A stretch of 64,000 nt of DNA, taken from an uncultured bacterium. GTDB lineage: Bacteria > Patescibacteriota > Minisyncoccia > Phycocordibacterales > GWA1-40-21. Below are positions 18,245 through 62,000 of this stretch, piece after piece. The notes under the pieces are model-generated. The model saw only the letters and a program-made list of their open reading frames with translations. It did no database searches and was not told the DNA's origin. The DNA lies in the NCBI GenBank assembly GCA_963804975.1, contig CAWDSG010000002.1, forward strand, positions 494,224 through 558,223, read 5' to 3'. A program made the position numbers and the translations under genes. How positions within the stretch are numbered: position 1 is the first letter of the stretch; every line of letters starts with the position of its first letter.

Positions 18245-21200
18245 TCAAGGCGTTGATGTTGCTGAATCCTGAACTGTAATAGCCGCGGGATTGCTTGTAA
18301 TCAAACCGCTTGAAGCGGTAATATTCGCCGTGCCTGCGCCAACCGGCGTGACTAAGCCGCTATCGTCAACCGTAGCGACCAAAACATTGTCCGATGCCCA
18401 AGTAAGAGTAGCTATTATAGAATCTCCATTTTGATCAAGAGTTTCTGCCGACAATTGCTGTGTGGTTGTTGCATCACCGACAGTCAAATTTGCCGTTGCC
18501 GGAGAAATGTTAATTGCAGTGAGAGTAGGCATTGGAGCTGAAACGGAAGCAACAGTGATGACCGAAGAATCGCTTGTAATCAAACCGCTTGAAGCGGTAA
18601 TATTCGCCGTGCCTGCGCCAACCGGCGTGACTAAGCCGCTATCGTCAACCGTAGCGACCAAAACATTGTCCGATGCCCAAGTAAGAGTAGCTATTATAGA
18701 ATCTCCATTTTGATCAAGAGTTTCTGCCGACAATTGCTGTGTGGTTGTTGCATCACCTATAGTCAAGCTGGCTGTCACTGGAGTGATATTAATGGTTGTC
18801 AGTGTTGAAGATGAATTGCCCGATGAACCGCTTCCCGATAAACCGCCTGATGGCGGGCTTGAAGATGCCGCCGGTAGCGTGTAATCCGAAGGATAGCCGA
18901 ATGTCTTCGCGTTCTTTATCGCAAATGCCGTCCAGCTGAAAGTTGTATTGTCAATCGCCGGCTTGTTCAAAATAATTGTAAAGCCAATTGTTGATTTGTT
19001 TGCGATAACATATCGGATATCGTTCGCAAAAATATCCCCGACAGCGGCGCTGTCTGCAGCAGGATTGTCGGATTTATTGAGAGAAATGGTCGCATTTACG
19101 ATCGGCTGTTCCAGATATGGATTGTCAAATTTCACATCAACCGACTCTTGGCCTTTGGCGATGACGGCAAATCCCGCCGTATCGGTATTGAAGTATGGTC
19201 TGCCGAAGAATATCGTGTCGTTCATAAAGCTGATTGCATCCGCAAGCGAGGAAACGCTGTCCACAATCAAGCCGTTGACTTTTATGCTCGGGGCGATTAT
19301 TTCAACGCCGGCGGTAATGCTATCTATTGTAAGAGTTGATGATGAAGCATTCAAGAATCTGGATAATGTATTATTTATTTCATTTATATTTGCTTCATCT
19401 GCCGAGGAACTTGCTTCAAGAGCTGTTGTTGAAGCAATAAAGTTATTATTTAAATCCTGTACACCTTTCAGGATAAGCGGAGTTAATTTGCCATAATCTA
19501 CAGACCAGGTATTTGTTGTGCCGAGAATATAAGGATCTGTACCGTTATCTCCGGCAGTAACAGCGTTTGGATAAATATTGTAAAGATCTTGGGCGATAAA
19601 GCCAGTATCCCCAGAACCATCTGAAATCCATTTGAAGTCCGCCACCTGAACTTTCATAAGATCGGCAAGCCCATAATGAGTTTCTGTTATGTCCGTTTTT
19701 AATCTTCTATCGGAACCTGTGACATACGAGATGGCAGAATTGGAACTATTTATAATAGCCCCAATTTCAGGGCCGCTGATACTTCCAAAACGAATGTAAC
19801 GAAGTCCATTGCCAGAAGCTGAATTTCGATCAATTATGATCCCCGCATCGGCTGTAGTTGATGATGCGGCAGTAGAGCTTGCAAGGATAAACAATGCGGC
19901 GCCGGCTGCTTTACTACTCGAATTCATAATTATAGCTAATCCAGTGCCTCCGGTACTAGAATTCGCGGTAATCTGGGTCGTTGTGCCAGTTGTCGCTAAA
20001 TCCGTAATCTGGAATCCGGTATTGGTATGGGCTGCGTTGAAGTTAAAGTAGACGAGGCCGTTTGTCGGAGCGCCAGTTGAACCTGTCTGCACCAGAAGAG
20101 CGGGACCTGTTTGGGAAGTGCCTGTCGTAAAGATCGCTTCACCCGAACCTGTTGTCAAACCGGTCGCATTGATGGTCAGAGCATTGCCTGTGGTAAGGGA
20201 GTTTGAGGTGATCTGGGTTGTGGTGGCAATCGTAGTTGAGATGTCGGTGATCTGGAAAGCGGCGCCACCAGCTGTTCTAGCTCCGTTGAAGTTGAAATAG
20301 ACGAGGCCGTTTGTAGGAGCGCTTGTTCCTCCGGTCTGGACCTTGAGTGAAGGGCCTGTCTGAGTGGTGTTTGTGGTGATTATTGAAAGTCCCGAGCCGG
20401 ATGTCAAAGCAGTTGCGTTGATGGTCATAGCAGTGCCTGTAGACATTGAGTTTGAAGTAATCTGGGTTGTGGTGCCGTTTGTGGAAAGATCAGTAATCTG
20501 GAATCCTGTATTTGATGTACCTGTATTGCGAGCGCTGTTGAAGTTAAAGTAGACGAGGCCGTTTGTCGGAGCGCCAGTTGAACCTGTCTGCACCAGAAGA
20601 GCGGGACCTGTTTGGGAAGTGCCTGTCGTAAAGATCGCTTCACCCGAACCTGTTGTCAAACCGGTCGCATTGATGGTCAGAGCATTGCCTGTGGTAAGGG
20701 AGTTTGAGGTGATCTGGGTTGTGGTGGCAATCGTAGTTGAGATGTCGGTGATCTGGAAAGCGGCGCCACCAGCTGTTCTAGCTCCGTTGAAGTTGAAATA
20801 GACGAGGCCGTTTGTAGGAGCGCTTGTTCCTCCGGTCTGGACCTTGAGTGAAGGGCCTGTCTGAGTGGTGTTTGTGGTGATTATTGAAAGTCCCGAGCCG
20901 GATGTCAAAGCAGTTGCGTTGATGGTCATAGCAGTGCCTGTAGACATTGAGTTTGAAGTAATCTGGGTTGTGGTGCCGTTTGTGGAAAGATCAGTAATCT
21001 GGAATCCTGTATTTGATGTACCTGTATTGCGAGCGCTGTTGAAGTTAAAGTAGACGAGGCCGTTTGTCGGAGCGCCAGTTGAACCTGTCTGCACCAGAAG
21101 AGCGGGACCTGTTTGGGAAGTGCCTGTCGTAAAGATCGCTTCACCCGAACCTGTTGTCAAACCGGTCGCATTGATGGTCAGAGCATTGCCTGTGGTAAGG

Positions 21201-24200
21201 GAGTTTGAGGTGATCTGGGTTGTGGTGGCAATCGTAGTTGAGATGTCGGTGATCTGGAAAGCGGCGCCACCAGCTGTTCTAGCTCCGTTGAAGTTGAAAT
21301 AGACGAGGCCGTTTGTCGGAGCTCCGGTTGAGCCGGTTTGGACTTGAAAGGCAGGACTGATAAGAGATGCGGATGTGCTAGCAACAGAAAGAATGCTGTT
21401 TGAAGTTGAAGTGCCAATGCCGACATTTCCGTTAAAGTAAGCGGCGTAGTTGCTGGCTGCTCCAGTCGGGGCAATAACTACCAATGAGTAGGCAATCGTT
21501 GTAGAAGCAGAAACAGTTCCGCCATTTACAAAGAGCGCAGTGCTTGTGCCGACATTTTTTATGCCTCCGCCTGAAGTGGTTGGCGCACCTGCAATGTATA
21601 CGCCAAACAGGTTAGTTTGAGTTGTGGAAGCATTGGTTGCCGCGATGGTTTGCTGACCGAAATAATTCCATGTCATGCCGGTGCCTGTTTTGCCTATTGA
21701 AGTGCTTGCATCGGTGAATGTGTACGCCTGTTCGTCGAAAAGAGCGCCCGCCGAGAGAGTGGTCGTACCTGATATTGTTTTGCCGAGTTCAAGAAGAGAG
21801 ACCGGTGTTGATGATCCGATGCCGACGTTGCCTCCCAACAGCCACGAATTTCCCGAAGCTGATATTTTATCCACATAAGCGGTTGTAACTGTAGGCACAG
21901 TGCCTGCAGTATAAACAGCCGGAGTTGATGTTGAAAGAACGAAGGTTGTAGTGGTGGTTGAAATGTAGACGTTTTCATTTCCTGCGCCGGTAGATGTGGC
22001 GAAATAAATCCTGTAGGAAGACGCTCCTGTTACAGAATATCCGGAAAGGGTGATTGAACCGGTAGTGCCTGTGGTTGTAGCTGTAACTTCTGTACTAGGC
22101 GTGGTAACTCCCACTCCGTCTGACGCGGAAATTTTGATGTAATAAACTCTAGCAGAGAGAGTGCCTCCTGTAGTTGACGAGGCGATTGTAGGTTTTGCCG
22201 GAGTGGACATATCTATAGAAATATTGTCTCCACCTGTAAGAGAAAGAGCGTTTTGCGGATTGGATGCGCCGATGCCGACATAACCTGCGTTGCTAACAGT
22301 GAATAATCTTGCCAATGACGATGAAGAAATTGTGAAGAGGTTTGCTTTTTGCAAAGTGCTTGTGCCGTAGACATCAAGAAAAGCGGCTGGCGAAGAGGTA
22401 TTGATTCCTAAGACGCCGGCGATTGAAATACCGGCCGTAAAGTTAAATAACCCATTTATATTTGTTAAGTAGATTGTCGGCTGCTGATTGGCCGGAGTGA
22501 GATATCGGATTATAATGACACCGCTGCCGCCGGAGCCGCCTGTCCCGCCATGCGAGCCGCCTCCTCCACCTCCAGTATTTGCGGTTCCATCTGATCCGTT
22601 ACTCGAGCCGTCTATCGCTCCATCCCCTCCACCGCCAGCGCCGCCAGTGCCGTATACAGTTCCTTGAGTAGAAGCGGTTCCGCCACCTCCCCCTCCGTAA
22701 TAAGCAGTGTACCCAGTGATACCGCTTGAGGTGCCAACTCCGCCATTTCCCGACTGATAAGATGTATAAGTACCACCTACGTCTCCCGCTCCTCCTCCTC
22801 CTCCAGTTTCATAAGGGTCAACTGCGCCAGCACCGTCTCCGCCGTCATAACCTTGGCCGGCAGTTCCGGCTCCTCCGGTAGGACACGAGTAACCTCCGCC
22901 GCCGCCTGATCCTCCATCGCCGGTTGTGCCTTCATAAGTGCAACCATGGCCTCCGCCGGAAGCTGTAAGGTCGTCAAAGGAAGAATCGTCGCCGTTTACG
23001 GCTGGTTCTCCGCCATCACCCACTGTTACAGTATAGGCAGTGCTTGTTGCCAAAGTTATACTTGAAGAAGCTACGGCTCCTCCGGCTCCTCCGCCTCCTC
23101 CTGGAGCTCCTCCGCCTCCTCCGCCTCCTCCGCCTGCGACAATCAAAACACTGTAGTCAGTGGTTGATGCCGGAGTGGTAAAAGTTCCGGATGATGTGAA
23201 CGTGCGGATAGTATAGGCGCCGTCGACCGTAACCGTTCCGCCAAGTCCGGCAGTAGTCGTTCCAAAAGTGATCGCTTGTGTTATATTTGCCGTTCCCGTT
23301 ATCAAAGTGTCTGAAATATTGGCTTCCGTTGAATTAGAAGTGGTTGAATTGATTGTCAAAGCGTTCAAATTTTGAGCACTTATGTCATCGCTTGAAATGA
23401 CGTTTCCCAAAACATTCAGATCGTTTGCTATATATGATGTGGATGTTCCGACTGTCTGGGTCGGATTAATCGCACCGGACAAATATAAAAGATCCAAATC
23501 CACCATAGAAACCAAGTCGGTAGTTCCGTTGCCGCCAATCATGTATCCGGATGGAGAAGAACCGGCTGGACGATACCACTTTATTCCGTTCATGCTTAAG
23601 GTTTTTATTTCCGCATCATTTTTTATAAGCGGCTGGCCTGAATTATTCACAGTAATATTGTCCATCTGCAATGAATCAATGGTCACGCCGCTTTCAATAT
23701 TAAACCAGGGTACATTCGCGCCGTTATACGCCCAGCGACTGTTTGAAATTTGCAGATTGCCGATATGAACCAATCCCGATCCTATATGGTAAGCCTGAAT
23801 CGGCTGGCCATATGTCATGCTGATATTTTCAAGAAGAACATCGTCTATTATTCCGCCTGTATAGGTAGGCGCATCCCAAGCATTCCAAAAACCGATAGTC
23901 CAATATACTGTTGTACCGTGAACATTTTTTATAGTCAGGTGCTTGATGTTGTTAGCCCCCGACAAAACAGAGATGCCATATTCGGAACCCATAAATTCAA
24001 TCCCATCGATTAAAACATCGGTAATGTCTCCCGAGTTAATAATCCAAGGAGTAGCGGAGCAATCCTGCAAGCCGTTCACTGCATCTGTGCTGTTTAAGTC
24101 AATAAGCTGGGCGCCAACCGCTCCTTTGATGTTTTTTAAGACCAAGTGAGAATTCGGACCGGTAAAATGGATGCCGTCATTGTTGGTGGACAAGCCCATA

Positions 24201-27200
24201 TACACTTCAGTATTTTCTACCGTTACATATGAAGTGTTCGTGAACATAATGGGCAGTTCAATATTGGGCTGGTCTGCGTTATAAACCCTTATTGTATCAA
24301 GAGTGACATCGCTTACTCCGTAAAATGCAACGCCGTTCACCCAGCAATCGCCTTCTGATTCGATAGGCGTTGCATCTTGATTTATTCCGTTCAAGCTCAC
24401 CTGGAAGTTAATCAGCTGTATGTTTGTGTCCTGCGCCGTTGTGGTTGAAGGATTTTCGTTCCTGATTATAGGAGCGTCGGTATGGTCAGCCCGATAAAGT
24501 CCGGTGTTCCAGCCAAGCCCTCTGATGGTGATGTCGCTAGGGACATGCAGGCTTCCCACCAGGAAAACTTTGTCAAGAATTAGTTCTCCTCCTCCTTCTG
24601 AAGCAAGCGTATCAATGGCGGATTGCAGGACTGCCGTATCATCTGTGCCGCCGCCGCTTGTAAGATTTGAGTCGCTGTGTATTCCGGATAATGTTGAGGC
24701 ATAAATTACATTTGCAGATAAACTGGAAGAAGCCGAGGAGCCGGAAGGTGTTGTTGTCGTAATGACATTACCGCTTGAATCAACCGCAAGAAATGCATTT
24801 GAAAGATTTGAAATATTTAAGTTTTGAATAGTGGAAGTGCCGATGACATATAATGCGGTGGCTGGAGTTGTTGTGCCGATGCCGACAAAACCGGATGCCG
24901 CGATATAAAGCACTGATGAGTTTGTTGAAGATGCAAAATTAGCTATGGCATTGTTGCCGGCTGTTCCATAAACTTCAAACTTTGCCAATGGCGAGGTTGT
25001 ACCGATTCCGACATTGCCAGAATAATAAATACTTGAAGCATTTGTTGTCCATTGAGAAGATCCTGTCGGTGTCGTTGTAGAAATAATTTTTCCGTTAGGA
25101 TCAACCGCTAAAAATGTGCTTGCAAGTCCGTTGCCAAGGGTAAGCTGTGTGATTGAGGTCGTTGCTAAAGTACTCGTACCTGAAACTGTGAAGGTGTTTG
25201 CTCCAAGGTTCACGTTTGTCGTCGCTCCGGTGTAAGGGACATAGGTTGCGGTGACAAAGGAAGTTGATGCGAAGGTGCTTGATGCATATGCATACGATGG
25301 GAAGTTGTTCACTACGAATGAAGTTGATGCGAAAGTGGAACTCGCATAAGCGAAACTTGGGAATGTGGAAGTGATCCAGGAAGTTGATGCGAATGTTCCA
25401 AGGACCCATGTGGTCGAAGCGTATGTCGATGAAGCGGTGGCGGAAGAGAGAAACTGCGAAGTGGAATTGTCCGCGGTGGAAAGATCCTGGCCGGAGATGT
25501 TTGAAATGTAGTTATTCGTATTTGACCATGCAAGCGGAGAGCCGACGGTTCCAATGCCTGAGAGAGTCCCTCCCGAAGTTACGACGCCTGTGAGATAACT
25601 CATCCCTGTCCATGGAGTGCCTGTGACAAACTCTGATGTGGTGGTGGAAGTGATGTTTCCGTTTTGATCAACTGCAAGGAATGAGCTTGTAAGATTGTTG
25701 CCCAAAGTGACTTGAGAGATAGTGGTTGAGGCCATGATGTTGGTGCCGTTTGCCGTGAAGCTTTGAGTCCCAAGATTGACTGCTCCTGTCGCACCGGTGT
25801 AAGGGACATAGGTTGCGGTGACAAAGGAAGTTGATGCGAAGGTGGAAGAGGCGTACGCAAATGTCGGGAAGTTTGTTGTTACAAAACTTGTGGAAGCGAA
25901 TGTACCGAGGACCCAGGATGTTGATGCGAATGTGGAAGAGGCATAGGTGAATGTTGGATAATTGGATGTCAGATATGAAGTCGAGGCGAATGTACCGAGG
26001 ACCCAGGATGTTGATGCGAATGTGGAAGAGGCATATGCAAAGCTCGGATATGTTGAAGTCAGTGTCGTGGTGGAAACATAATCTGCTCCGAGAGCGGTGA
26101 TTGTTTCAAAAGTGTTTGTCACCCATGAAGTGGAAGCGAAGGTGCTTGATGCATATGCATACGATGGGAAGTTGTTCACTACGAATGAAGTTGATGCGAA
26201 AGTGGAACTCGCATAAGCGAAACTTGGGAATGTGGAAGTGATCCAGGAAGTTGATGCGAATGTTCCAAGGACCCATGTGGTCGAAGCGTATGTCGATGAA
26301 GCGGTGGCGGAAGAGAGAAACTGCGAAGTGGAATTGTCCGCGGTGGAAAGATCCTGGCCGGAGATGTTTGAAATGTAGTTATTCGTATTTGACCATGCAA
26401 GCGGAGAGCCGACGGTTCCAATGCCTGAGAGAGTCCCTCCCGAAGTTACGACGCCTGTGAGATAACTCATCCCTGTCCATGGAGTGCCTGTGACAAACTC
26501 TGATGTGGTGGTGGAAGTGATGTTTCCGTTTTGATCAACTGCAAGGAATGAGCTTGTAAGATTGTTGCCCAAAGTGACTTGAGAGATAGTGGTTGAGGCC
26601 ATGATGTTGGTGCCGTTTGCCGTGAAGCTTTGAGTCCCAAGATTGACTGCTCCTGTCGCACCGGTGTAAGGGACATAGGTTGCGGTGACAAAGGAAGTTG
26701 ATGCGAAGGTGGAAGAGGCGTACGCAAATGTCGGGAAGTTTGTTGTTACAAAACTTGTGGAAGCAAATGTTGAGGAAGCATAAGTGTAGGTTGGATAGTT
26801 AGCTATTGTGGCAAAAGTGTTTGTCACCCACGAAGTGGAAGCGAACGTTCCAACTATCCACGAGGTGGAAGCAAAAGTAGAGGAAGCGTAAGAATAAGGA
26901 ACATAAGTTGCTGTTACAAAACTTGTGGAAGCAAAAGTTGATGAGGCGTAAGCGAAGGTCGGATAATTTGCGGTGAGGGTTGTGGTGGAGACGTAATCTG
27001 CTCCGAGAGAAGCGATTGTCTCAAAAGTGCTGGTCACCCACGAAGTGGAAGCGAATGTTCCAACTATCCACGAGGTGGAAGCAAAAGTTGATGAGGCGTA
27101 TGCGAATGTCGGGAAGTTGTTCACTACGAATGAAGTTGATGCGAAAGTGGAGGAAGCATAATTATAATTTACATAATTAGTGAAAAGATCTGCCGTTGAA

Positions 27201-30200
27201 GTCGCTATCACATTTCCATTCATATCAACCGCAAGGAATGAATTTGAAAGATTTGAAATGTTCAGATTTTGAGTCGTTATTGTTCCCACCACATACAAAA
27301 CTGTGGCAGGCGTAGTCGTCCCAATCCCCACCTTTCCCCCATCTTTTACCGCAAATACTGTGGTTGTATTATCAACCAAATCCAATAAATCTCCTGTTCC
27401 TTTTCCTGTCACATTTAACACTGCTCCTGTTGCAGTAGCGAATCCCTGCGTTATGGAGAGAACATTTGCAGAATGAGCAATAGTTCCTCCTGTTTGTGTC
27501 ATCGTATCATTTATATCAACTACCGAACCTGTAACTGTAAGAGTTTGGCCAGCATTGTTATAATCGTAGCTTCTTGAAAAACTTGCTATATTTCCTGCCA
27601 TTGCATATGAGTTTGCTGTAAGATTTGTCGCTCCCGAAACATTTAATAATTTTCCCGATAATGCTGTCTGGCGAGAAGTCGCTCCTGTTTGAGATATAGA
27701 TAAACCAGTGCCAGAAGTCATTGCCGAACTAGGAGTAACAGTCATAATTGTTCCTGTATAATTTGTGGAAGGGCTAGATTGCACGGAAAGAGCCGTGAGA
27801 GTGTTTGATGTAGCTCCAACAACACTAAGTTGTTCAGTTGGGTTTGTTTGATTTATTCCTACGTAACCTGATGGAGCTATATACAAAGCTGAAGTTCCGC
27901 TTGAAGAAGCGAAATTTGCAATGGCGGGAGTGAAACTTGTGCCGTCTACCATTGTGGTCGTGCCGACAACAGACAAAGAAGCGCTTGGCGTGGAGCTTCC
28001 AATTCCCACCGTTCCGTTGCCAGAAACAACCATAAGAGCATTGGCAGAGGACAAAACATTTCCATTAACCTCTTTGGCTGAAATTACCAAAGTCGGATAT
28101 GTGGTGGAAGCAGATACTGGTTGTATATTGAGAGCTATTTGGTTCGCTTGGCTGTTCGCGGTTGAAACTGCATAAGCTAATCCTGAAAATGTAAGCAAAT
28201 CAGATGATTGGATTCTGTTTCCCGCTGTAGCCGCAGTTGTGTTTGTAATTAAGACAGCATTGCCAGAAGTTGTCGTTCCAATACCATTCATTGTATCGGT
28301 AATGGTGTTTGAAAAACCTCCTGTTGTCGCTCCCGTAAGAGCGCCTGTCATCGTCAAAGTTCCTCCCTGACTAAGCGTTAATCTGGTGGCATAAGCAGAA
28401 TTATTGGAGGAAGAATTAAACATAAGTTGAGGATTTGCAACTGTCGCTTGTTGAGGCACGCTTGTTATTTGCCATTCAGCTGGCTGTGAAGTGGACGCTG
28501 TCGTTCCCCAACCGTAGGATTTGAACCATATTGAAGGGCTGTATTGCTGGCTTCCTGAAGCTGCAGCTGTGTTGTTTATCAAAGACAAACCTGATGTGGT
28601 GGCAGCGGTTGCTCCAATATTTTCAGTATCCAATTCAAGCAATGACGCGGGAGAAGTCGTCCCAATCCCCACATTCCTCGTCGCATAATCATAATAAATC
28701 CCAGAATCGGTCAAAGCACCGCTTGATGTGGCGTATTGAATATATCCAGTTGTGAAAGGAGAGGTGGAAGCCAAGAAAGACAGGGTGTTTGAAAGATATG
28801 GGAGAGAGGTGGAAGCTGAAAGAGGAAGGAAAGTTGAAGTCACCCAGCTCGTGGAAGCAAAAGTGCTTGAAGCGTATGCGAATGTCGGATAGTTGGATGT
28901 CAGATATGAAGTTGATGCAAAAGTTCCAAGGACCCAGGAAGTGGAAGCGAAAGTTGATGAAGCGTAAGTAAACGTCGGGAAGTTTGTTGTTACAAAACTG
29001 GTAGAAGCGTAAGTGGAAGAAGCCATGGCAGAAGAGATAAACTGGGAGGTGGAGTTGTCGGCGGTGGAAAGATCCTGGCCGGAGATGTTTGAAATGTAGT
29101 TATTCGTATTTGACCATGCAAGCGGAGAGCCGACGGTTCCAATACCCGATAGAGTCCCTCCTGAGGTTACGACGCCTGTGAGATAACTCATCCCTGTCCA
29201 TGGAGTGCCTGTGACAAACTGGGATGTGGTGGTAGAGATGACATTACCTGAAGTATCAACCGCAATAAAACTGTTTGTAAGATTTGAAATGTTTAGTCCT
29301 TGTGTTGTGGAAGTACCAATGACCGAAAGCGCTGCGTTTGGAGTGGTAGTACCGATGCCCACAGTTCCGCTAAATGTTGATGTGGCAAACGTTGATGTCC
29401 CCAAGACCGTAAAATTGTGAGTTCCTAAATCCACATCCGCGGTCGCTCCTGAATATGGGACAAAATTTGTTGCATCAACCGTGTTTGAAGGAAGAGCAAT
29501 ATGCGAATCGGCTTCGTCTCCGTAATAAAGATCTACTGTCGGAGAAAATGGACCTGGTCCAGAAATTGTTGCATAAACCTTTGTCACTATTCTCGAAGAA
29601 GTTGAGGCCATAATATATGTGCTTGATGTTGCGAAGTACAAGCGATATTCAACTTCTGAAGTCCCAATGGCTGGTGTTACTTCTGATGTGCCGATTCTGG
29701 CTATATTCGCTCCGCTTGAATTGGCTTCCCAAATCTCTGCGTACAACGTGACAGTCTTGCCGTTTGCTACAGGTCTTGCAGCATGAATATGGAATTCATA
29801 TTGTCCTGCGGGAATAAAAGTAAGATTTGGAAAACCCGGATCTGTAATCCAGTTTTGCACAACATCGGTTCCAACCGGAAGAGTGGTGGTTGATAAAGTT
29901 GTTTTTGGAGTATAAGGAGTTGGAAGTTGTTTTTTGTATCCAGTTACATTTGATGCTGTATTTTGAAAATAATAGGTTAGGGTGCCTTGTGCCGGCAAAG
30001 TTTGCCAACTTGGCGCTGCGGAATTCACTCCATCTCCTGTCTGAGCGAGAAACTTTTGGACAGTTGTTGTGTTGCCGGAAAGAACTGTTGCCGCTCCTGA
30101 ATCTCCGCCATAAATGATATCTCCAAGAGTGGTCATTGGCTGATACGAAGAAGAAGCATATTCAAATGTCGGGAAGTTTGTTGTTACAAAACTTGTCGAT

Positions 30201-33200
30201 GCAAATGTGGATGATGCGTATGAGAATGTCGGATAGTTTCCTGTGAGGTATGAGGTGGAAGCGTAAGTGGAGGAGGCATAAGCGAAGGTTGGATAGTTGG
30301 ATGTCAGATATGAAGTCGAGGCGAATGTACCGAGGACCCAGGATGTTGATGCGAATGTGGAAGAGGCATATGCAAAGCTCGGATATGTTGAAGTCAGTGT
30401 CGTGGTGGAAACATAATCTGCTCCGAGAGCGGTGATTGTTTCAAAAGTGTTTGTCACCCATGAAGTGGAAGCGAAGGTTCCAAGGACCCATGTGGTCGAA
30501 GCGTATGTCGATGAAGCGGTGGCGGAAGAGAGAAACTGCGAAGTGGAATTGTCCGCGGTGGAAAGATCCTGGCCGGAGATGTTTGAAATGTAGTTATTCG
30601 TATTTGACCATGCAAGCGGAGAGCCGACGGTTCCAATGCCTGAGAGAGTCCCTCCCGAAGTTACGACGCCTGTGAGATAACTCATCCCTGTCCATGGAGT
30701 GCCTGTGACAAACTCTGATGTGGTGGTGGAAGTGATGTTTCCGTTTTGATCAACTGCAAGGAATGAGCTTGTAAGATTGTTGCCCAAAGTGACTTGAGAG
30801 ATAGTGGTTGAGGCCATGATGTTGGTGCCGTTTGCCGTGAAGCTTTGAGTCCCAAGATTGACTGCTCCTGTCGCACCGGTGTAAGGGACATAGGTTGCGG
30901 TGACAAAGGAAGTTGATGCGAAGGTGGAAGAGGCGTACGCAAATGTCGGGAAGTTTGTTGTTACAAAACTTGTGGAAGCGAATGTACCGAGGACCCAGGA
31001 TGTTGATGCGAATGTCGAAAGAACCCATGAAGTGGAAGCAAAAGTTCCAACTATCCACGAGGTGGAAGCAAAAGTAGAGGAAGCGTATGCGAATGTCGGG
31101 AAGTTATTCACAACAAATGAAGTTGAGGCGAAGGTGGAGGAAGCGTAGCTGAATGAAACATACGTCGATGTTGCATTCGCAATCTTCAAATAAGTGGATG
31201 AAGCTGTGGTAGTGGAAAGCAAAGCGTTCAAAGCGGTTTCCAAATCTCCTTGATCTGAAAGTGGTCCTGTAATAGCGCCCCATGCCACGGTAGCGCTGCC
31301 GCTTGAAGCAAATGCCCATTCAAAACCGGTTGATGAAGTTGAAGAAGCCTTTAAAAATGTTCCGGGTGTTCCCGTCTCAAGTGAAGCGATTGTCGTTGAT
31401 GAAGTCCAATACGCAAGAGTGTTTGTAGCGCCTCCGCTCAAACTCGCTCCGCTTGTAGGAGTTGTCGTTGAAATAATGTTTCCGTTTGCATCAACTGCAA
31501 GAAAAGAATTGCTTAGACCATTATCAAGCGAAAGAGATGTGATTGAAGTAGTGGCAAGAGTGGAAGTGCCGGAAACGGTGAAAGAGTTTGCTCCGAGATT
31601 CACATTTGCATTTGCTCCGGTGTAAGGAACGTATGTGGCTGTGACGAATGATGTCGAAGCGAAAGTGGAAGAAGCGTATGAGAATGTCGGAAAGTTATTC
31701 ACTACGAATGAAGTGGAAGCAAAGGTTGATGAAGCGTATGAGAATGTCGGATAATTGGATGTGAGAGTTGTAGTAGAAACATAATCAGACGAGAGAATGG
31801 AGGTGAAAGTGGAAGTGGAAATGTAATCTGTTCCAAGCGAAAGGATAGTGGCAAAAGTGTTTGTCACCCAGCTCGTGGAAGCGAAAGTTCCGATGACCCA
31901 TGAGGTGGAGGCGTAAGTGCTTGATGCGTATGAAAAATTTGGAAAATTATTTACAACGAAGCTTGTCGACGCGAATGTCGATGAAGCGTATGCGAATGTT
32001 GGAAATGTGGAAGTGATCCAGGAAGTGGAGGCAAAAGTAGAGGAAGCATAAGCAAAACTTGGAAATGTCGAATTAATCCAGGAAGTGGAGGCGAATGTTC
32101 CGAGAACCCACGATGTCGACGCGAATGTGCTTGAAGCATAAGCAAATGTCGGAAAATTATTTGTTACAAAACTTGTGGAGGCAAATGTGGAAGAGGCGTA
32201 TGCATAGTTTGGATAGTTTGCGGTGACCCACGAAGTGGAAGCGAATGTTGAGTAAACCCACGATGTCGAAGCGAACGTGCTTGAGGCGTAATCAAATGTC
32301 GGGAAATTATTCACTACGAATGATGTGGAAGCGTAAGTGGAAGAAGCGTATGAGAAGCTTGGATATGTTGATGTCAGGGTTGTCGTGGAAACATAATCTG
32401 CGGCAGCGGATGTCGTGGAAAGTTTTTCATTCAGAGCGGTTTGCAAATCACCTTGGCTTGAAAGTGTTCCGGTAATAAAACCCCAGACCCCACTTCCACC
32501 GCTCGACGAAGCCAGTGCCCAATCAAAACCTGTCGGTGATGTAGACGATGACCTTAAAAATGTTCCCGCAGTTCCTGTTGCAAGACCTGTGATTTCCGAA
32601 GTGCCGCTGAATATCGCAAGCTGATTAACTAACCCCGTTCCTGTAACCGGATTTGTTAAAGCTTTTTGAAATGTATCATTTACCCACGATGTCGAAGCGA
32701 ATGTGCTTGAAGCATAAGCAAATGTCGGGAAATTATTCACTACGAATGATGTGGAAGCGTAAGTGGAAGAAGCGTATGAGAAGCTTGGATATGTTGATGT
32801 CAGGGTTGTCGTGGAAACATAATCTGCGGCAGCGGATGTCGTGGAAAGTTTTTCATTGAATATATTCCAATCAGCACTTGATAAGGCGCCCGTTCCTGTG
32901 CTTGAAGCTAAACCGAGCGAAAGAGTTTGTCCTGCTAAATAAAGACCGTTCCCGGTGCCTATTGCCACATCGCCGCTGTTTGTACCAGTTGAAGTTCCGG
33001 AAATATTTGAAGCTGAAATTGCGCCCGTAAATGATGCGTTTATTCCGCTCAAAAGTCCGCTTGAGGCAACAGAAAATAAATTCGCTCCGGAAGAATTTTG
33101 AATTTGAAAAAGATTTGCGACTTGTCCTACAAATCCACCAATTGTGAGCGCCGTGGAATTCGTAGATGTGGAAAGAATACTGACAACCGAATTTGCAATC

Positions 33201-33703
33201 GGCGTCGTGGTGCCGAATGAAGATTGCCCTGTTCCGGAAACTGCACTTGAAAGCTGTGAGAATGCCGAAGCGGTTATGAGCTCGCGCGGAGAAAGAGTTT
33301 CAAAATATATATTGTCGGACGAAACTTCAATTTGAAGATAAACTGTATTGTTTGTGTTGAAATTATAATTCAGCGCATCCGGATATCCATTTGCGGTATC
33401 TCCGATATTCACATTGAAAACTCCCTGTCTGACCGTTGTTGAAGCAGAATTTGGAGAGAGTGCCGGCCAAAGTTTATTGCCAGTCGTAGTGCTTACATTA
33501 TCCCAGAGAGAAAATTTAAAATAATAGATCGTCCCGCTGCCGCCCAAAAGATTTCCGCTTGAATCATACAATCTGCCTTGGAAGCCCAGGATTGCCGGCG
33601 TACCGGATGCCGCGTAAGAAAAATTAAATGCTAAGGAGAATAACGATACTATTATTAATAGCTTCGCCAGGACTTTTTTACTTAAAAAATGTTTTATATA
33701 CAT
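18245..33703 (-). CDS. giant (5152 aa) repetitive surface protein with tail-fibre-like repeats, a pectate-lyase-like beta-helix, a poly-Gly module, a peptidase-S74-like chaperone segment and two C-terminal Big_2 domains
   Basis: Single ORF with a signal peptide. Carries many …NVGIGTTTP…L.V.G and YASSTFASTSW/F repeats, the TDDTAVLQSAIDT…beta-helix, GGGGGGGGGAPGGGGG…VIIIRY, SDRRLKTDITETHYGLADLMK and two TLTAINISPATANLTVGD… Big_2 repeats. Confidence 0.8.
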   Translation of the reverse strand: MYIKHFLSKKVLAKLLIIVSLFSLAFNFSYAASGTPAILGFQGRLYDSSGNLLGGSGTIYYFKFSLWDNVSTTTGNKLWPALSPNSASTTVRQGVFNVNIGDTANGYPDALNYNFNTNNTVYLQIEVSSDNIYFETLSPRELITASAFSQLSSAVSGTGQSSFGTTTPIANSVVSILSTSTNSTALTIGGFVGQVANLFQIQNSSGANLFSVASSGLLSGINASFTGAISASNISGTSTGTNSGDVAIGTGNGLYLAGQTLSLGLASSTGTGALSSADWNIFNEKLSTTSAAADYVSTTTLTSTYPSFSYASSTYASTSFVVNNFPTFAYASSTFASTSWVNDTFQKALTNPVTGTGLVNQLAIFSGTSEITGLATGTAGTFLRSSSTSPTGFDWALASSSGGSGVWGFITGTLSSQGDLQTALNEKLSTTSAAADYVSTTTLTSTYPSFSYASSTYASTSFVVNNFPTFDYASSTFASTSWVYSTFASTSWVTANYPNYAYASSTFASTSFVTNNFPTFAYASSTFASTSWVLGTFASTSWINSTFPSFAYASSTFASTSWITSTFPTFAYASSTFASTSFVVNNFPNFSYASSTYASTSWVIGTFASTSWVTNTFATILSLGTDYISTSTFTSILSSDYVSTTTLTSNYPTFSYASSTFASTSFVVNNFPTFSYASSTFASTSFVTATYVPYTGANANVNLGANSFTVSGTSTLATTSITSLSLDNGLSNSFLAVDANGNIISTTTPTSGASLSGGATNTLAYWTSSTTIASLETGTPGTFLKASSTSSTGFEWAFASSGSATVAWGAITGPLSDQGDLETALNALLSTTTASSTYLKIANATSTYVSFSYASSTFASTSFVVNNFPTFAYASSTFASTSWIVGTFASTSWVLSTFASTSWVLGTFASTSFVTTNFPTFAYASSTFASTSFVTATYVPYTGATGAVNLGTQSFTANGTNIMASTTISQVTLGNNLTSSFLAVDQNGNITSTTTSEFVTGTPWTGMSYLTGVVTSGGTLSGIGTVGSPLAWSNTNNYISNISGQDLSTADNSTSQFLSSATASSTYASTTWVLGTFASTSWVTNTFETITALGADYVSTTTLTSTYPSFAYASSTFASTSWVLGTFASTSYLTSNYPTFAYASSTYASTSYLTGNYPTFSYASSTFASTSFVTTNFPTFEYASSSYQPMTTLGDIIYGGDSGAATVLSGNTTTVQKFLAQTGDGVNSAAPSWQTLPAQGTLTYYFQNTASNVTGYKKQLPTPYTPKTTLSTTTLPVGTDVVQNWITDPGFPNLTFIPAGQYEFHIHAARPVANGKTVTLYAEIWEANSSGANIARIGTSEVTPAIGTSEVEYRLYFATSSTYIMASTSSRIVTKVYATISGPGPFSPTVDLYYGDEADSHIALPSNTVDATNFVPYSGATADVDLGTHNFTVLGTSTFATSTFSGTVGIGTTTPNAALSVIGTSTTQGLNISNLTNSFIAVDTSGNVISTTTSQFVTGTPWTGMSYLTGVVTSGGTLSGIGTVGSPLAWSNTNNYISNISGQDLSTADNSTSQFISSAMASSTYASTSFVTTNFPTFTYASSTFASTSWVLGTFASTSYLTSNYPTFAYASSTFASTSWVTSTFLPLSASTSLPYLSNTLSFLASTSPFTTGYIQYATSSGALTDSGIYYDYATRNVGIGTTSPASLLELDTENIGATAATTSGLSLINNTAAASGSQQYSPSIWFKSYGWGTTASTSQPAEWQITSVPQQATVANPQLMFNSSSNNSAYATRLTLSQGGTLTMTGALTGATTGGFSNTITDTMNGIGTTTSGNAVLITNTTAATAGNRIQSSDLLTFSGLAYAVSTANSQANQIALNIQPVSASTTYPTLVISAKEVNGNVLSSANALMVVSGNGTVGIGSSTPSASLSVVGTTTMVDGTSFTPAIANFASSSGTSALYIAPSGYVGINQTNPTEQLSVVGATSNTLTALSVQSSPSTNYTGTIMTVTPSSAMTSGTGLSISQTGATSRQTALSGKLLNVSGATNLTANSYAMAGNIASFSRSYDYNNAGQTLTVTGSVVDINDTMTQTGGTIAHSANVLSITQGFATATGAVLNVTGKGTGDLLDLVDNTTTVFAVKDGGKVGIGTTTPATVLYVVGTITTQNLNISNLSNSFLAVDMNGNVIATSTADLFTNYVNYNYASSTFASTSFVVNNFPTFAYASSTFASTSWIVGTFASTSWVTSTFETIASLGADYVSTTTLTANYPTFAYASSTFASTSFVTATYVPYSYASSTFASTSWIVGTFASTSWVTNTFATIANYPTYTYASSTFASTSFVTTNFPTFAYASSTFASTSFVTATYVPYTGATGAVNLGTQSFTANGTNIMASTTISQVTLGNNLTSSFLAVDQNGNITSTTTSEFVTGTPWTGMSYLTGVVTSGGTLSGIGTVGSPLAWSNTNNYISNISGQDLSTADNSTSQFLSSATASSTYASTTWVLGTFASTSWITSTFPSFAYASSTFASTSFVVNNFPSYAYASSTFASTSWVTNTFETITALGADYVSTTTLTSTYPSFAYASSTFASTSWVLGTFASTSYLTSNYPTFTYASSTFASTSWVLGTFASTSFVTTNFPTFAYASSTFASTSFVTATYVPYTGATGAVNLGTQSFTANGTNIMASTTISQVTLGNNLTSSFLAVDQNGNITSTTTSEFVTGTPWTGMSYLTGVVTSGGTLSGIGTVGSPLAWSNTNNYISNISGQDLSTADNSTSQFLSSATASSTYASTTWVLGTFASTSWITSTFPSFAYASSTFASTSFVVNNFPSYAYASSTFASTSFVTATYVPYTGATTNVNLGANTFTVSGTSTLATTSITQLTLGNGLASTFLAVDPNGKIISTTTPTGSSQWTTNASSIYYSGNVGIGTTSPLAKFEVYGTAGNNAIANFASSTNSSVLYIAASGFVGIGTTTPATALYVIGTSTIQNLNISNLSNAFLAVDSSGNVITTTTPSGSSASSSLSANVIYASTLSGIHSDSNLTSGGGTDDTAVLQSAIDTLASEGGGELILDKVFLVGSLHVPSDITIRGLGWNTGLYRADHTDAPIIRNENPSTTTAQDTNIQLINFQVSLNGINQDATPIESEGDCWVNGVAFYGVSDVTLDTIRVYNADQPNIELPIMFTNTSYVTVENTEVYMGLSTNNDGIHFTGPNSHLVLKNIKGAVGAQLIDLNSTDAVNGLQDCSATPWIINSGDITDVLIDGIEFMGSEYGISVLSGANNIKHLTIKNVHGTTVYWTIGFWNAWDAPTYTGGIIDDVLLENISMTYGQPIQAYHIGSGLVHIGNLQISNSRWAYNGANVPWFNIESGVTIDSLQMDNITVNNSGQPLIKNDAEIKTLSMNGIKWYRPAGSSPSGYMIGGNGTTDLVSMVDLDLLYLSGAINPTQTVGTSTSYIANDLNVLGNVISSDDISAQNLNALTINSTTSNSTEANISDTLITGTANITQAITFGTTTAGLGGTVTVDGAYTIRTFTSSGTFTTPASTTDYSVLIVAGGGGGGGGGAPGGGGGAGGAVASSSITLATSTAYTVTVGDGGEPAVNGDDSSFDDLTASGGGHGCTYEGTTGDGGSGGGGGYSCPTGGAGTAGQGYDGGDGAGAVDPYETGGGGGAGDVGGTYTSYQSGNGGVGTSSGITGYTAYYGGGGGGTASTQGTVYGTGGAGGGGDGAIDGSSNGSDGTANTGGGGGGSHGGTGGSGGSGVIIIRYLTPANQQPTIYLTNINGLFNFTAGISIAGVLGINTSSPAAFLDVYGTSTLQKANLFTISSSSLARLFTVSNAGYVGIGASNPQNALSLTGGDNISIDMSTPAKPTIASSTTGGTLSARVYYIKISASDGVGVTTPSTEVTATTTGTTGSITLSGYSVTGASSYRIYFATSTGAGNENVYISTTTTTFVLSTSTPAVYTAGTVPTVTTAYVDKISASGNSWLLGGNVGIGSSTPVSLLELGKTISGTTTLSAGALFDEQAYTFTDASTSIGKTGTGMTWNYFGQQTIAATNASTTQTNLFGVYIAGAPTTSGGGIKNVGTSTALFVNGGTVSASTTIAYSLVVIAPTGAASNYAAYFNGNVGIGTSTSNSILSVASTSASLISPAFQVQTGSTGAPTNGLVYFNFNGARTAGGAAFQITDISTTIATTTQITSNSLTTGNALTINATGLTTGSGEAIFTTGTSQTGPALLVQTGSTGAPTNGLVYFNFNSARNTGTSNTGFQITDLSTNGTTTQITSNSMSTGTAMTINATALTSGSGLSIITTNTTQTGPSLKVQTGGTSAPTNGLVYFNFNGARTAGGAAFQITDISTTIATTTQITSNSLTTGNALTINATGLTTGSGEAIFTTGTSQTGPALLVQTGSTGAPTNGLVYFNFNSARNTGTSNTGFQITDLSTNGTTTQITSNSMSTGTAMTINATALTSGSGLSIITTNTTQTGPSLKVQTGGTSAPTNGLVYFNFNGARTAGGAAFQITDISTTIATTTQITSNSLTTGNALTINATGLTTGSGEAIFTTGTSQTGPALLVQTGSTGAPTNGLVYFNFNAAHTNTGFQITDLATTGTTTQITANSSTGGTGLAIIMNSSSKAAGAALFILASSTAASSTTADAGIIIDRNSASGNGLRYIRFGSISGPEIGAIINSSNSAISYVTGSDRRLKTDITETHYGLADLMKVQVADFKWISDGSGDTGFIAQDLYNIYPNAVTAGDNGTDPYILGTTNTWSVDYGKLTPLILKGVQDLNNNFIASTTALEASSSADEANINEINNTLSRFLNASSSTLTIDSITAGVEIIAPSIKVNGLIVDSVSSLADAISFMNDTIFFGRPYFNTDTAGFAVIAKGQESVDVKFDNPYLEQPIVNATISLNKSDNPAADSAAVGDIFANDIRYVIANKSTIGFTIILNKPAIDNTTFSWTAFAIKNAKTFGYPSDYTLPAASSSPPSGGLSGSGSSGNSSSTLTTINITPVTASLTIGDATTTQQLSAETLDQNGDSIIATLTWASDNVLVATVDDSGLVTPVGAGTANITASSGLITSDSSVITVASVSAPMPTLTAINISPATANLTVGDATTTQQLSAETLDQNGDSIIATLTWASDNVLVATVDDSGLVTPVGAGTANITASSGLITSNPAAITVQDSATSTP
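18288..18790. repeat. two tandem 279-bp repeats, each encoding a C-terminal Big_2 Ig-like domain
   Basis: Near-identical DNA copies starting at 18294 and 18573. Confidence 0.7.
19970..21360. repeat. intragenic tandem repeat, 501-bp period, about 2.7 copies, 100% identical
   Basis: Identical sub-ORFs at 20118/20619/21120 and at 20364/20865. Encodes 167-aa units (…TNGLVYFNFN…) with an internal ~83-aa sub-period. Confidence 0.85.
25250..26760. repeat. intragenic tandem repeat, 867-bp period, about 1.75 identical copies
   Basis: Identical sub-ORFs at 25312/26179, 25384/26251 and 25600/26467. Confidence 0.85.
30290..30990. repeat. dispersed third copy of the 867-bp repeat unit, with an internal deletion
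   Basis: The sub-ORF 30682-30942 is identical to 25600-25860. Confidence 0.7.
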
Positions 33704-59096: not shown

Positions 59097-62000
59097 TTAT
59101 TGATCATTAACCGAAATGGAGTAATTTGTTGTCTGCTCTCCGTAAGCTACGGTGAGTGTTTCGCTTGCGGTTGTGGTTGATGAATCGAATCCTGTTATGT
59201 CCTCAGGCGTGATAGGTTTGATTGAAGTTGAACCATCGGAATAAGTTCCGGTAACGACAAGGCCTGCGATATCAAGGGTGTCGCCAATGATGTAAACAAG
59301 TTTGTCTGCCGGAGTTGTGATTGCAATACTCAATAAAGTCGGTGGCGATGGAATCGGATTATTATCGGAATCGCCGGATGATATTACTGTAACGGTTGTT
59401 GAAGCGGAAAGATTTCCGACAGTCGCGGTAATGATTACAGTTCCAGTTGAAGATGCGGTAAAGATTCCTGCCAGCGGATCAATCGTGCCAACCGAATCAT
59501 CCGAAATTGCCCATGCGGTTGTTGTTGAAAGTGTTATTCCGTTTTGATCGGTTATATAAAATGAGGTGGAAGAACCAATAGAAACATTTGTATTATAAGG
59601 AATTATATTTATTGAGGTAGTTGTTGAATTTGAATTTGAAGCTGGTATATTTGCATTTCCTGAAGAATTTCCTCCTGAGTTCAGGACTGAAGCAGTGCTG
59701 TCAGCATTTGTTGAAGAATTTTGTATTTCGCAAGCCCCAAGTTTATTAACCAAGATGCCATTATCAATAATTACGCAATATTCCTGTCCTGTAGATTTAT
59801 CATACATCGTAATCCCTTCCGGTTTCCCGCTTGTGCCAATTGCAATGCCCGTAAGATGAGCCAGTCCGTTTTCAACTTTTATTATGAACGAGCCGATTTC
59901 TTTTATGGCATTGACGAGAGCAGCGATGATCGTCCTGTCTGTAATGGCCAGATATCCTCTTGTGTCAGTGGCTACAGCTTCAGGAATGGCAAGCTGCATG
60001 TTTTGGGCTGAAAATCCTGAGTAGACATTTGCCGTATCATATCCCGTTCCCGGTTTCCATGTATAGTTGATGGAATTAATTTTCATTACATCGGATAAGC
60101 TTCTTTCATACGGACCTTGAATGTTTTTCAGTATTTCATCTGATTCTCCGCCTGGAATTATATTTCCCTGAATATCTACTGTGATTTCAGCCATTGTACT
60201 GCTTGAAAGGCTCATGATCTGAATGGTGCCTGTGGCAACTGTCAGTGTAGCTTCCGGAGTTGAGGTGCCAATACCGACATTGCCTGCACTTGTGATAGTA
60301 AACAATCTTTCATTGCTTGATGAAGAAACTGCGAAAAGATCTGTGGTTGGTGAAGAGCTTGTGCCGTAGATATCAAGAACGGCAGAAGGAGTTGAAGTTC
60401 CAATTCCTAAAGTTGTAGTTATAATGCCAGATCCAAAATTTAAATTGCCGTCTGGTGTTAAAGTGATTTCCGCTTGTTGAACAGCCGGAGTAAGATATCG
60501 AATTATAACAATACCACTGCCTCCGGATCCAGGCGTACCAGTATGCGAACCGCCGCCTCCTCCTCCAAGGTTTGAAGTTCCGTTTTCTCCGCTGACAGGT
60601 CCTGCCGTTAAAGCTCCATCTCCTCCGCCGCCAAGCCCGCCAGTCCCTCCTGCGGCTCCTTGATCGGTTGCAGTTCCTCCTCCGCCTCCAGCATAATAAA
60701 CTTCGGCACCAGTAATTGAAGACGTAGTTCCGATTCCACCGTTTCCTGATTGATCTGTTGTATAGTCATCGCCCGGACCCCCTGCTCCGCCTCCGCCTCC
60801 AGTTTCATAAGTTCCAGCAAGACCGTGTCCGTCTCCTCCGTCATAACCTTGGCCTTCAGTTCCTGTTCCCCCGCTTGCGCAAGAAATACCTCCTCCACCT
60901 CCGGATCCTCCATCACCACTTGAAGAAGTACAACCATGGCCTCCGCCAATAGCTGTAAAACCATTTAAAGAAGAATCTTGGCCGTTTGTTCCCGCTGCAC
61001 CGCCATTACCCACGGTAACACTATAACTTCCCGCTAAAGACATACTTGAAGAAGATATAACTCCGCCTCCGCCTCCGCCTCCGCCCGGAGCACCTCCTCC
61101 CCCTCCGCCTCCGCCTCCAGCAACAATCAAAATGCTATAATCGGAAACCAGCGGAGAAGCTGTAAAAGTTCCGGATGATGTAAATGTGTGAACAGTGTAA
61201 GCGCCATCAGTTGTAATAGTTCCGCCAGTCCCAAGAGGATTATTACCAATCACTAATGAATCATCAACATTGACTGTTCCGCCCGTTAATGTACTTGCTG
61301 TTATATCAGGAATACTTAAACTGCTTACGCTCGTTGTTCCTATGATAATTCCGCCTTGTATAGTTAGAGCATTTTCCGCATTAATACTGGCTGTGATACC
61401 TGCCATCGGTGTTGTTGTTCCCACCGAATATCCTAAAGCATCTATACCCTGAGGCGCTAATAATGTTCCGGATTTTGCTAACAGGTAAGTTAACCACGTT
61501 GAACTGGAATAACCAGTTAGCCGGATTCCTCCGTTAGTGAAATCGTATATATATGTCTCCAGAGTGCTTGCATCGGTTGTCAGGCCACTGGAAGGAGATC
61601 CTACTCCATTTCCAAAATTATATCCGTAACTACTACCATATAAACTCAGTGCCCCTTTTTGTAAATTAACTTTTTCACCAAAAGTATTTTCTTTGGCTTT
61701 ATCGTTGGCCTTTGAGACAGCCATACTTAAAATTTTATTCAAACTATTTTGATCGGTAAGTTTGATGACATTAGCGACATTTGGATCAATAGTATCTGTT
61801 TTAACTGGCACTTCTGTTCCCCAATCTATTAAATCAGTAGATTCTTTGTAAAATGCATTATTGTGGGTCTTGTCCAAATCTGCGTAGTAAATTCTCCATG
61901 TAACTGGTGTTGTCGGCAATTGAACAAAAGAATAACCTTCGTAAAGTCCATTCCAATGCGGCGCAACCGGATTAAGTGTGGTGTAAGGGCCGGTAAGATT

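Follow-up and report, generated by a model that had tools for sequence, protein, structure and literature searches.

Two giant surface proteins share a glycine-rich domain

The DNA analyzed here is a 64,000-nucleotide (nt) stretch of contig CAWDSG010000002.1 from an uncultured bacterium (assembly GCA_963804975.1), hereafter called the window. On its minus strand lie two giant genes whose products, termed protein A and protein B, carry the same glycine-rich module. This module, of about 250 amino acids (aa), is a complete copy, one per protein, of the catalogued domain PF21722 (Gly_rich_2). A first-pass annotation of the window, made from the sequence alone, had likened the module to the polyglycine-II sandwich receptor-binding domains of T-even phage gp38 adhesins and had proposed a structure prediction and a profile search against such adhesins as checks.

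Protein A starts with an N-terminal signal peptide, which is followed by about 3000 aa of serine/threonine-rich repeats, a 500-aa region, the glycine-rich domain, 925 aa of repeats, an S74 domain and two Big_2 domains (Table 1). Protein B is cut off by the edge of the window. Its public counterpart P0367 is 2688 aa long and identical to all 1633 visible residues of B, and the reading frame stays open to the window edge. Hence, the protein of 1602 aa reported by the first-pass annotation exists, but this length is an artefact of the window. In full-length B, Pfam domains occur in the order LVIVD beta-propeller repeats, GDSL esterase, a GH43-like region below the cut-off, glycine-rich domain (aa 1995–2223 of P0367), S74, Big_2 and Big_3. 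The N-terminal 1055 aa of B, which lie outside the window, comprise a hydrophobic signal-like segment and about nine of the LVIVD repeats. Both proteins thus begin with a segment that indicates an extracellular setting, i.e., the signal peptide of A and the hydrophobic N-terminal segment of full-length B.

Table 1. Positions of proteins A and B and of their domains in the window (residues of B are counted from the start of the open reading frame called within the window).
Feature	Residues or length (aa)	Position	Strand	Remarks
Protein A (P0364 in public databases)	5152	18245..33703	minus	Open reading frame (ORF)
Glycine-rich domain of A (PF21722)	3486-3738	22490..23248	minus	Borders from hidden Markov model (HMM) and structure model; predicted tumor necrosis factor (TNF)-like beta-sandwich with Gly-helix lattice
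Segment of A between glycine-rich domain and S74	925	19715..22489	minus	Near-identical 501-nt tandem repeats at 20036-21337; no Pfam match
S74 of A (PF13884)	4664-4716	19556..19714	minus	E 2.1e-11, 44.3 bits; starts SDRRLK (S4664-DRRL-K)
Protein B (P0367), truncated by window edge	2688 (full length)	59097..64000	minus	Called ORF 59097..63905; frame open to 63998
GDSL esterase of B		62721..63227	minus	
GH43-like region of B		62019..62429	minus	Below Pfam cut-off
Glycine-rich domain of B (PF21722)	892-1141	60483..61232	minus	Pfam, hmmsearch and AlphaFold2
Neck of B between glycine-rich domain and S74	113	60144..60482	minus	GIGTSTP-type motifs
S74 of B (PF13884)	1255-1311	59973..60143	minus	E 1.5e-5, 25.6 bits; starts SDEILK (S1255-DEIL-K)
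Big_2 of B		59385..59621	minus	
Big_3 of B		59109..59309	minus	

The motifs listed by the first-pass annotation, i.e., DGAYT(I/V)(R/H)TFTSSGTFT, LIVAGGGGGGGGGAPGGGGG(A/G)GG, GGGHGC, GGSGGGGG, ETGGGGGAG, GGGGGGSH and GSGGSG..IIRYLTPA, are all present in both proteins. Its central observation, that the module is common to the two, is well founded: the copies are 68% identical and align locally with a score of 932, as compared with 217 ± 13.5 for 200 composition-preserving shuffles (z = 52.8). At Gly columns the identity is 87%, at the other columns it is still 54%, and the differences fall mainly into the same variable segments between the Gly runs. At the DNA level the modules are 69% identical over 762 nt, and their Gly codons are a mix of GGA and GGC that differs between A and B, which argues against both a recent copy and an assembly artefact. 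Upstream of the module, the two proteins are 12–28% identical. Downstream, about 50% identity continues for about 80 aa, so that the first part of the neck of B resembles A aa 3739–3830 (22214–22489). Neither composition nor assembly thus accounts for the shared module, which is genuine and old. An HMM built from the domain and run against the six-frame translation of the window finds exactly one copy in A and one in B, and no further copies. The module consists of 36–37% Gly in both copies, and the low-complexity filter of BLAST hides it completely.

The borders of the module differ from those first assumed. The stretch from DGAYT to IRYLTPA covers aa 3494–3738 in A (DNA 22490–23224) and aa 900–1141 in B (DNA 60483–61208), and the module had been taken to begin after the FTSSGTFT motif. 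According to the HMM and the structure model, this opening stretch forms the first beta-strands inside the domain, the onset of which lies about eight residues upstream of DGAYT.

Family membership and predicted fold

Both copies match PF21722 over profile positions 1–225 of 226 (A, 80.4 bits, E 2.6e-22; B, 77.2 bits, E 2.4e-21). These scores exceed the curated gathering score of 24.3 bits by about 50 bits, and the match also holds when the whole proteins are scanned. The module furthermore matches PHROG 2295 with E-values of 1e-48 to 1e-52; scans with NCBIfam and PADLOC gave no match. In alignment A1, 24 of the 25 invariant columns are Gly, and the consensus has the termini HTFTSSGTF and GGSGIVIIRY. 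The family includes an experimentally solved member because gp33 of phage Bxb1 falls in PF21722 (45 bits; hhalign probability of 79.5% against the module alignment), and the module shares the fold of this protein. Simpler searches of the structure database were less informative. Plain phmmer against Protein Data Bank (PDB) sequences returned only artificial Gly linkers of single-chain antibody fragments and fusion constructs. An hmmsearch with the untrimmed alignment A1 returned only low-complexity matches (CCDC6, IC140) and missed both Pam3 gp24 and Bxb1 gp33, probably because non-domain flanks were included in the profile.

The structure prediction yields a compact and confident fold rather than a disordered linker. 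AlphaFold2 modeling of the module with a 53-sequence alignment gave a mean predicted local distance difference test score (pLDDT) of 94.5 and a predicted template modeling score (pTM) of 0.91. The model contains about ten beta-strands, and long confident stretches without regular secondary structure coincide with the Gly runs. In this model, strands from both ends and from the middle of the module assemble into a TNF-like sandwich, and the long connections between them are formed by some 12–14 conserved Gly runs. A second model, which spans B aa 870–1320, has a pLDDT of 93–98 in the domain, 34–64 in the 113-aa neck (modeled as a monomer) and about 80 in S74. With its confident fold next to a low-scoring neck, the module behaves as a compact and autonomous globule. 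The fold is the TNF-like sandwich with glycine-rich lattice of the Pam3 gp24, Bxb1 gp33 and ALK type and not the fold of gp38.

The conservation pattern of the family was derived from 326 near-full domains (123 proteins that are mutually at most 50% identical). Mean entropy is 0.62 bits in the 75 Gly-dominated columns, 2.06 bits in the 58 strand columns and 2.83 bits in the remaining 118 columns. The alternation of conserved Gly motifs with variable segments, which the first-pass annotation had described for the two copies, hence extends to the whole family. Near-invariant Gly columns combined with variability elsewhere are what one would expect from a fixed scaffold that carries diversifiable turns.

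Position relative to the S74 domains

Both S74 domains score above the PF13884 cut-off of 22 bits. In the endosialidase chaperone, the catalytic residues are Ser911 and Lys916, i.e., the lysine is located at position +5. We take the Ser-x4-Lys of the S74 domains of A and B to match the spacing of this catalytic dyad. The glycine-rich domain is separated from S74 by 113 aa in B and by 925 aa in A. A placement of the module just before S74 is thus accurate for B and not for A, and the distal tip next to S74 envisaged by the first-pass annotation fits B loosely and does not fit A. If the putative autocleavage of S74 took place, it would free a fragment with Ig-like domains instead of a bare chaperone. 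Overall, the first-pass annotation is partly supported: it correctly recognized a folded, phage-fibre-like binding module of the polyglycine type, named the wrong family and was partly right on the position.

Distribution of the family and its partner domains

A phmmer search against 1.84 billion cluster representatives retrieved 12,709 proteins at E ≤ 1e-3, 4,755 of them at E ≤ 1e-10. A word-indexed search returned 3,410 matches, and PF21722 was already annotated on all among the matches listed. A viral structure library contributed 246 matches at E ≤ 1e-3, most of which already bear the name ‘Glycine-rich domain-containing protein’. The viral sources include uncultured Caudovirales, the cyanophages S-TIM4 and Bellamy, Pelagibacter phage HTVC025P, prasinoviruses and Halorubrum phage HF2. 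A tblastn search of the module against a phage collection found none, with the query masked by the low-complexity filter, so that this result is no evidence of absence. At least 16 genomic loci were confirmed by tblastn, and they belong to Lentisphaerae, Planctomycetota, Verrucomicrobiota, Bacteroidetes, Elusimicrobiota, several phyla of the candidate phyla radiation (CPR) and Woesearchaeota. Half of the 16 loci listed (L004, L006, L009, L012, L014, L015, L017 and L018) come from ultra-small lineages, namely Paceibacterota, Moraniibacteriota, Gottesmanbacteria, Staskawiczbacteria, three Woesearchaeota and one unclassified archaeon. This share may reflect an enrichment in episymbionts or a bias toward relatives of the query.

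In its relatives, the domain is accompanied by Laminin_G_3, SPRY, fn3, PKD and Big/Ig-like domains as well as type IV pilin N-termini. S74 (PF13884) occurs together with PF21722 in 9 of the 120 relatives listed. In CPR proteins of about 430 aa (P0024, P0034, P0063, P0083 and P0114; for example from Candidatus Falkowbacteria), the domain is fused to a prepilin N-terminus (G-F-T/S-L-x-E; PF07963). Judged by sequence, this suggests that the glycine-rich domain is displayed on type IV pili in these organisms. Tandem domains, often 3–4 or more, are seen in other relatives (P0244, P0366, P0369 and P0373), for which Pfam gives 3–4 stretches. One relative of 7335 aa has up to 12 stretches matched by phmmer, as compared with one each in A and B.

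Proposed function and alternative explanations

We consider the PF21722 domain a putative ligand-binding knob on S74-assembled surface fibres, and assign this reading as a whole a probability of about 0.8. The mechanism can be sketched from solved relatives. As in Pam3 gp24 and ALK, and as reported for Bxb1 gp33 and gp29, the Gly runs would form extended polyglycine-II-type helices that pack side by side through main-chain hydrogen bonds. Such packing would leave no room for side chains and thereby keep the Gly columns near-invariant. The turns joining the helices would be free in sequence and length and might thus serve as a diversifiable surface. S74 would trimerize the phage-tail-fibre-like shaft upstream of it and may then cut itself off, and the glycine-rich domain would form a globular knob that sticks out from the shaft. 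The ligand bound by the variable turns would be a surface molecule, most likely a glycan or a component of the envelope of a host or partner cell.

Several observations weigh against this proposal. In A, 925 aa separate the domain from S74 and about 1400 aa follow it up to the C-terminus, hence it forms no terminal tip. S74 itself is not C-terminal in either protein, as about 490 aa in A (18248–19714) and about 350 aa in B (59100–60143) with Ig-like domains of the Big_2/Big_3 type lie behind it. The polyglycine-II geometry of this particular module is inferred from matches to solved structures and from confidently predicted regions that lack regular secondary structure. Apart from its paralogue, no relative more than 70% identical to the module was found. 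Furthermore, we found no binding data for A, B or any cellular member of PF21722, and the accessible text did not describe what Bxb1 gp33 does.

The most serious alternative regards the module as purely structural, i.e., as a rigid knob, a spacer or a nucleus for folding or oligomerization that binds no ligand. TNF-like folds commonly mediate trimer contacts, and TNF-like domains can trimerize. The internal position of the domain in A, far ahead of S74, would suit such a role, the 3–12 tandem copies of some relatives could be shaft material, and no demonstrated receptor was found for Bxb1 gp33. Nevertheless, hypervariable turns on an invariant scaffold are unexpected for a module with a structural task only, and lectin-like domains and pilins occur together with this domain. 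In the Klebsiella phage fibre TFP_Y, which recognizes lipopolysaccharide, host-range mutations fall in the glycine-rich domain (PMC12671077). A purely structural module therefore appears unlikely, although less so for A, where the domain lies a long way from both termini. Homology to the T-even gp38 adhesins, with the module as a polyglycine-II sandwich receptor-binding domain at a distal tip, is less probable still, and we regard it as very unlikely. Conserved Gly motifs that alternate with hypervariable segments are found here as in gp38, and the domains of Pam3 gp24 and Bxb1 gp33 have been described as resembling the polyproline-II (PPII) helix bundle of gp38 (PMC9608196; PMC13243192). This sequence logic is common to gp38 and PF21722, however, and does not discriminate between them. 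The gp38 HMMs (PF05268, GP38; PF21721, Gp38_N) match neither copy at E ≤ 1, while the S16 gp38 control scores 246 bits. The hhalign probability of S16 gp38 (6F45) against the module is 2.3%, and gp38 is absent from the result lists of the fold searches including Foldseek. Thus, the gp38 resemblance holds for the polyglycine-II principle and fails for homology.

A reading of A and B as tail-fibre genes of a phage or prophage, which would make the domain a true viral receptor-binding domain, is suggested by their phage-like parts (S74, GIGTTTP motifs and the strong PHROG match) and by the 246 viral structural relatives. The genomic context contradicts this. The genes flanking A and B encode TsaD, a class I aminoacyl-tRNA synthetase, LepA, ClpB, IF-2, GlmS, ribonucleotide reductase and RNase J, accompanied by nine tRNAs, and the source contig measures 606 kb. 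Capsid, terminase and tail genes were not seen among the ORFs scanned. Signal peptides, Ig-like C-termini and lengths of 5152 and 2688 aa, far above those of typical fibres, also speak for cellular proteins. The housekeeping flanks, together with a LepA that shares 89% identity with sequences of Candidatus Paceibacterota, indicate chromosomal genes of a Paceibacterota (CPR) bacterium and not a prophage, and we hold a viral origin of the two genes to be highly improbable. Finally, the module might be a disordered low-complexity Gly linker that A and B share by chance or composition. Its high Gly content, its complete masking by BLAST and the artificial Gly linkers returned by phmmer give this impression. 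The shuffling test, the family match and the confident fold refute it, and its probability is close to nil.

A wider idea builds on the ligand-binding knob, and we put it forward tentatively as a possibility with the odds against it. Giant S74-assembled fibres with glycine-rich domains might be the organelles by which Paceibacterota and other CPR/DPANN episymbionts recognize their hosts, and these cells would have co-opted a phage receptor-binding toolkit. In this case, the turns would set partner specificity, and A and B, with only 54% identity outside the Gly columns, would recognize different ligands. The hints are that about half of the listed tblastn loci are CPR/DPANN, that CPR proteins carry the pilin fusions and that B contains a GDSL esterase and a weak GH43-like region.

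The feature itself is real but ordinary, since the domain is catalogued, solved in relatives and very common. One gain is in annotation, as Gly ‘filler’ masked by BLAST turns out to be a folded and catalogued domain, and these unannotated CPR proteins should receive the PF21722 label. Less ordinary is the setting. A scaffold of TNF-like sandwich and polyglycine-II helices, known from phage fibres and ALK/LTK, occurs beside a phage-type S74 in giant surface fibres of an ultra-small and probably episymbiotic bacterium, and this might matter for how CPR bacteria recognize their partners. If the turns did set partner recognition, these domains might, speculatively, become practical markers for predicting which hosts uncultured CPR bacteria use.

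Further features of protein A and of the surroundings

The serine/threonine-rich part of A (aa ~30–3000; ~24700–33600) consists mostly of short (F/Y)ASSTFASTS(F/W)V-type units among GIGTTTP-type motifs and remains below the Pfam threshold. Gene A also contains intragenic DNA repeats at 20036–21337 and 25251–26528, namely three tandem 501-nt units that are 98–100% identical and 300-nt blocks that recur every 867 nt with 98–100% identity. These repeats reflect either very recent duplications or an uncertain copy number in the assembly. The region upstream of the glycine-rich domain (aa 2990–3490; 23234–24736) was suspected by eye to be a right-handed, pectate-lyase-like beta-helix or a depolymerase (e.g., GGGTDDTAVLQSAIDTLASEGGGELILDK). 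This candidate was dropped as unsupported, as the region has no Pfam match at E ≤ 1 and no PDB sequence match at E ≤ 0.01.

Immediately downstream of A, at 11410–16418 on the minus strand, four ORFs have signal-peptide-like N-termini. Three of them lack a Pfam match, and in the remaining one Big_6 and dockerin are matched weakly, with scores that reach the Pfam cut-offs at best. Directly downstream of B, at 56673–59087 on the same strand, an 804-aa protein with Ig-like surface domains is encoded. Owing to these surface-type ORFs, both giant genes appear to sit in clusters of surface-protein genes. Elsewhere in the window, an ORF at 7220–8332 (minus strand) with a weak transposase domain of the IS110/IS116/IS902 family is located amid three tRNAs (Phe, Arg and Gly; tRNAs at 5298–8860). 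A 291-aa protein encoded at 47971–48846 (minus strand) combines an N-terminal hydrophobic segment with an MliC lysozyme-inhibitor domain, which could relate to a life on or near other cells.

Comparison with known systems

Pam3 gp24 (PDB 7YPX/7YFW), a cyanophage tail fibre, combines a TNF-like beta-sandwich with a glycine-rich lattice, and the same combination is found here. In Pam3 gp24, the loops of the sandwich run into 12 glycine-rich motifs that form a lattice with a spacing of about 5 Å and main-chain hydrogen bonds, and diversity grows toward the distal turns (PMC9608196). Its authors liken the fold to S16 gp38 and ALK, and the superposition with the PPII bundle of gp38 gives 2.7 Å over 52 C-alpha atoms (PMC9608196). 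The Pam3 gp24 fibre measures 250 aa and docks to the baseplate through a helical domain at its N-terminus, and its chaperone gp25 is a separate protein. In contrast, A and B have no helical docking domain, lie in non-phage surroundings and carry S74 in cis; no search aimed at gp25 was made. Moreover, the glycine-rich domain is internal in A and B and C-terminal in Pam3 gp24. Another close relative is the ‘tail wing brush’ protein gp33 of mycobacteriophage Bxb1 (PDB 9D93), which belongs to PF21722. The domains of Pam3, Bxb1 gp33 and Bxb1 gp29 have been classed as gp38-like PPII-helix bundles (PMC13243192). While Bxb1 gp33 is a virion protein of 267 aa, the domain described here is embedded in CPR surface proteins of 2.7–5.2 thousand aa together with S74, Big_2 and enzyme-like domains.

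The extracellular glycine-rich domain of ALK/LTK (PDB 7LIR, 7LRZ and 7NWZ) has the same fold of TNF-like sandwich and polyglycine-II lattice. The corresponding family PF12810 matches neither copy at E ≤ 1. In ALK, the glycine-rich region is the ligand-binding region of the receptor. The resemblance of the module to ALK/LTK is far weaker than that to the phage members, and in ALK/LTK the domain is part of a metazoan receptor tyrosine kinase that also has an EGF-like domain and responds to a cytokine ligand.

The gp38 adhesins of T-even phages and S16 (PF05268; PDB 6F45) follow the same principle, with Gly-rich motifs that form polyglycine-II-type helices and display hypervariable receptor-binding loops (PMC9608196; PMC13243192). 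They differ in that gp38 lacks the TNF-like sandwich and is a separate protein that caps the gp37 trimer. Endosialidase-type spikes and fibres (PF13884) resemble A and B in that S74, with its Ser-x4-Lys, is located downstream of the fibre part. There, however, S74 is C-terminal and belongs to a virion, whereas in A and B it is followed by further domains and the host is a cell.

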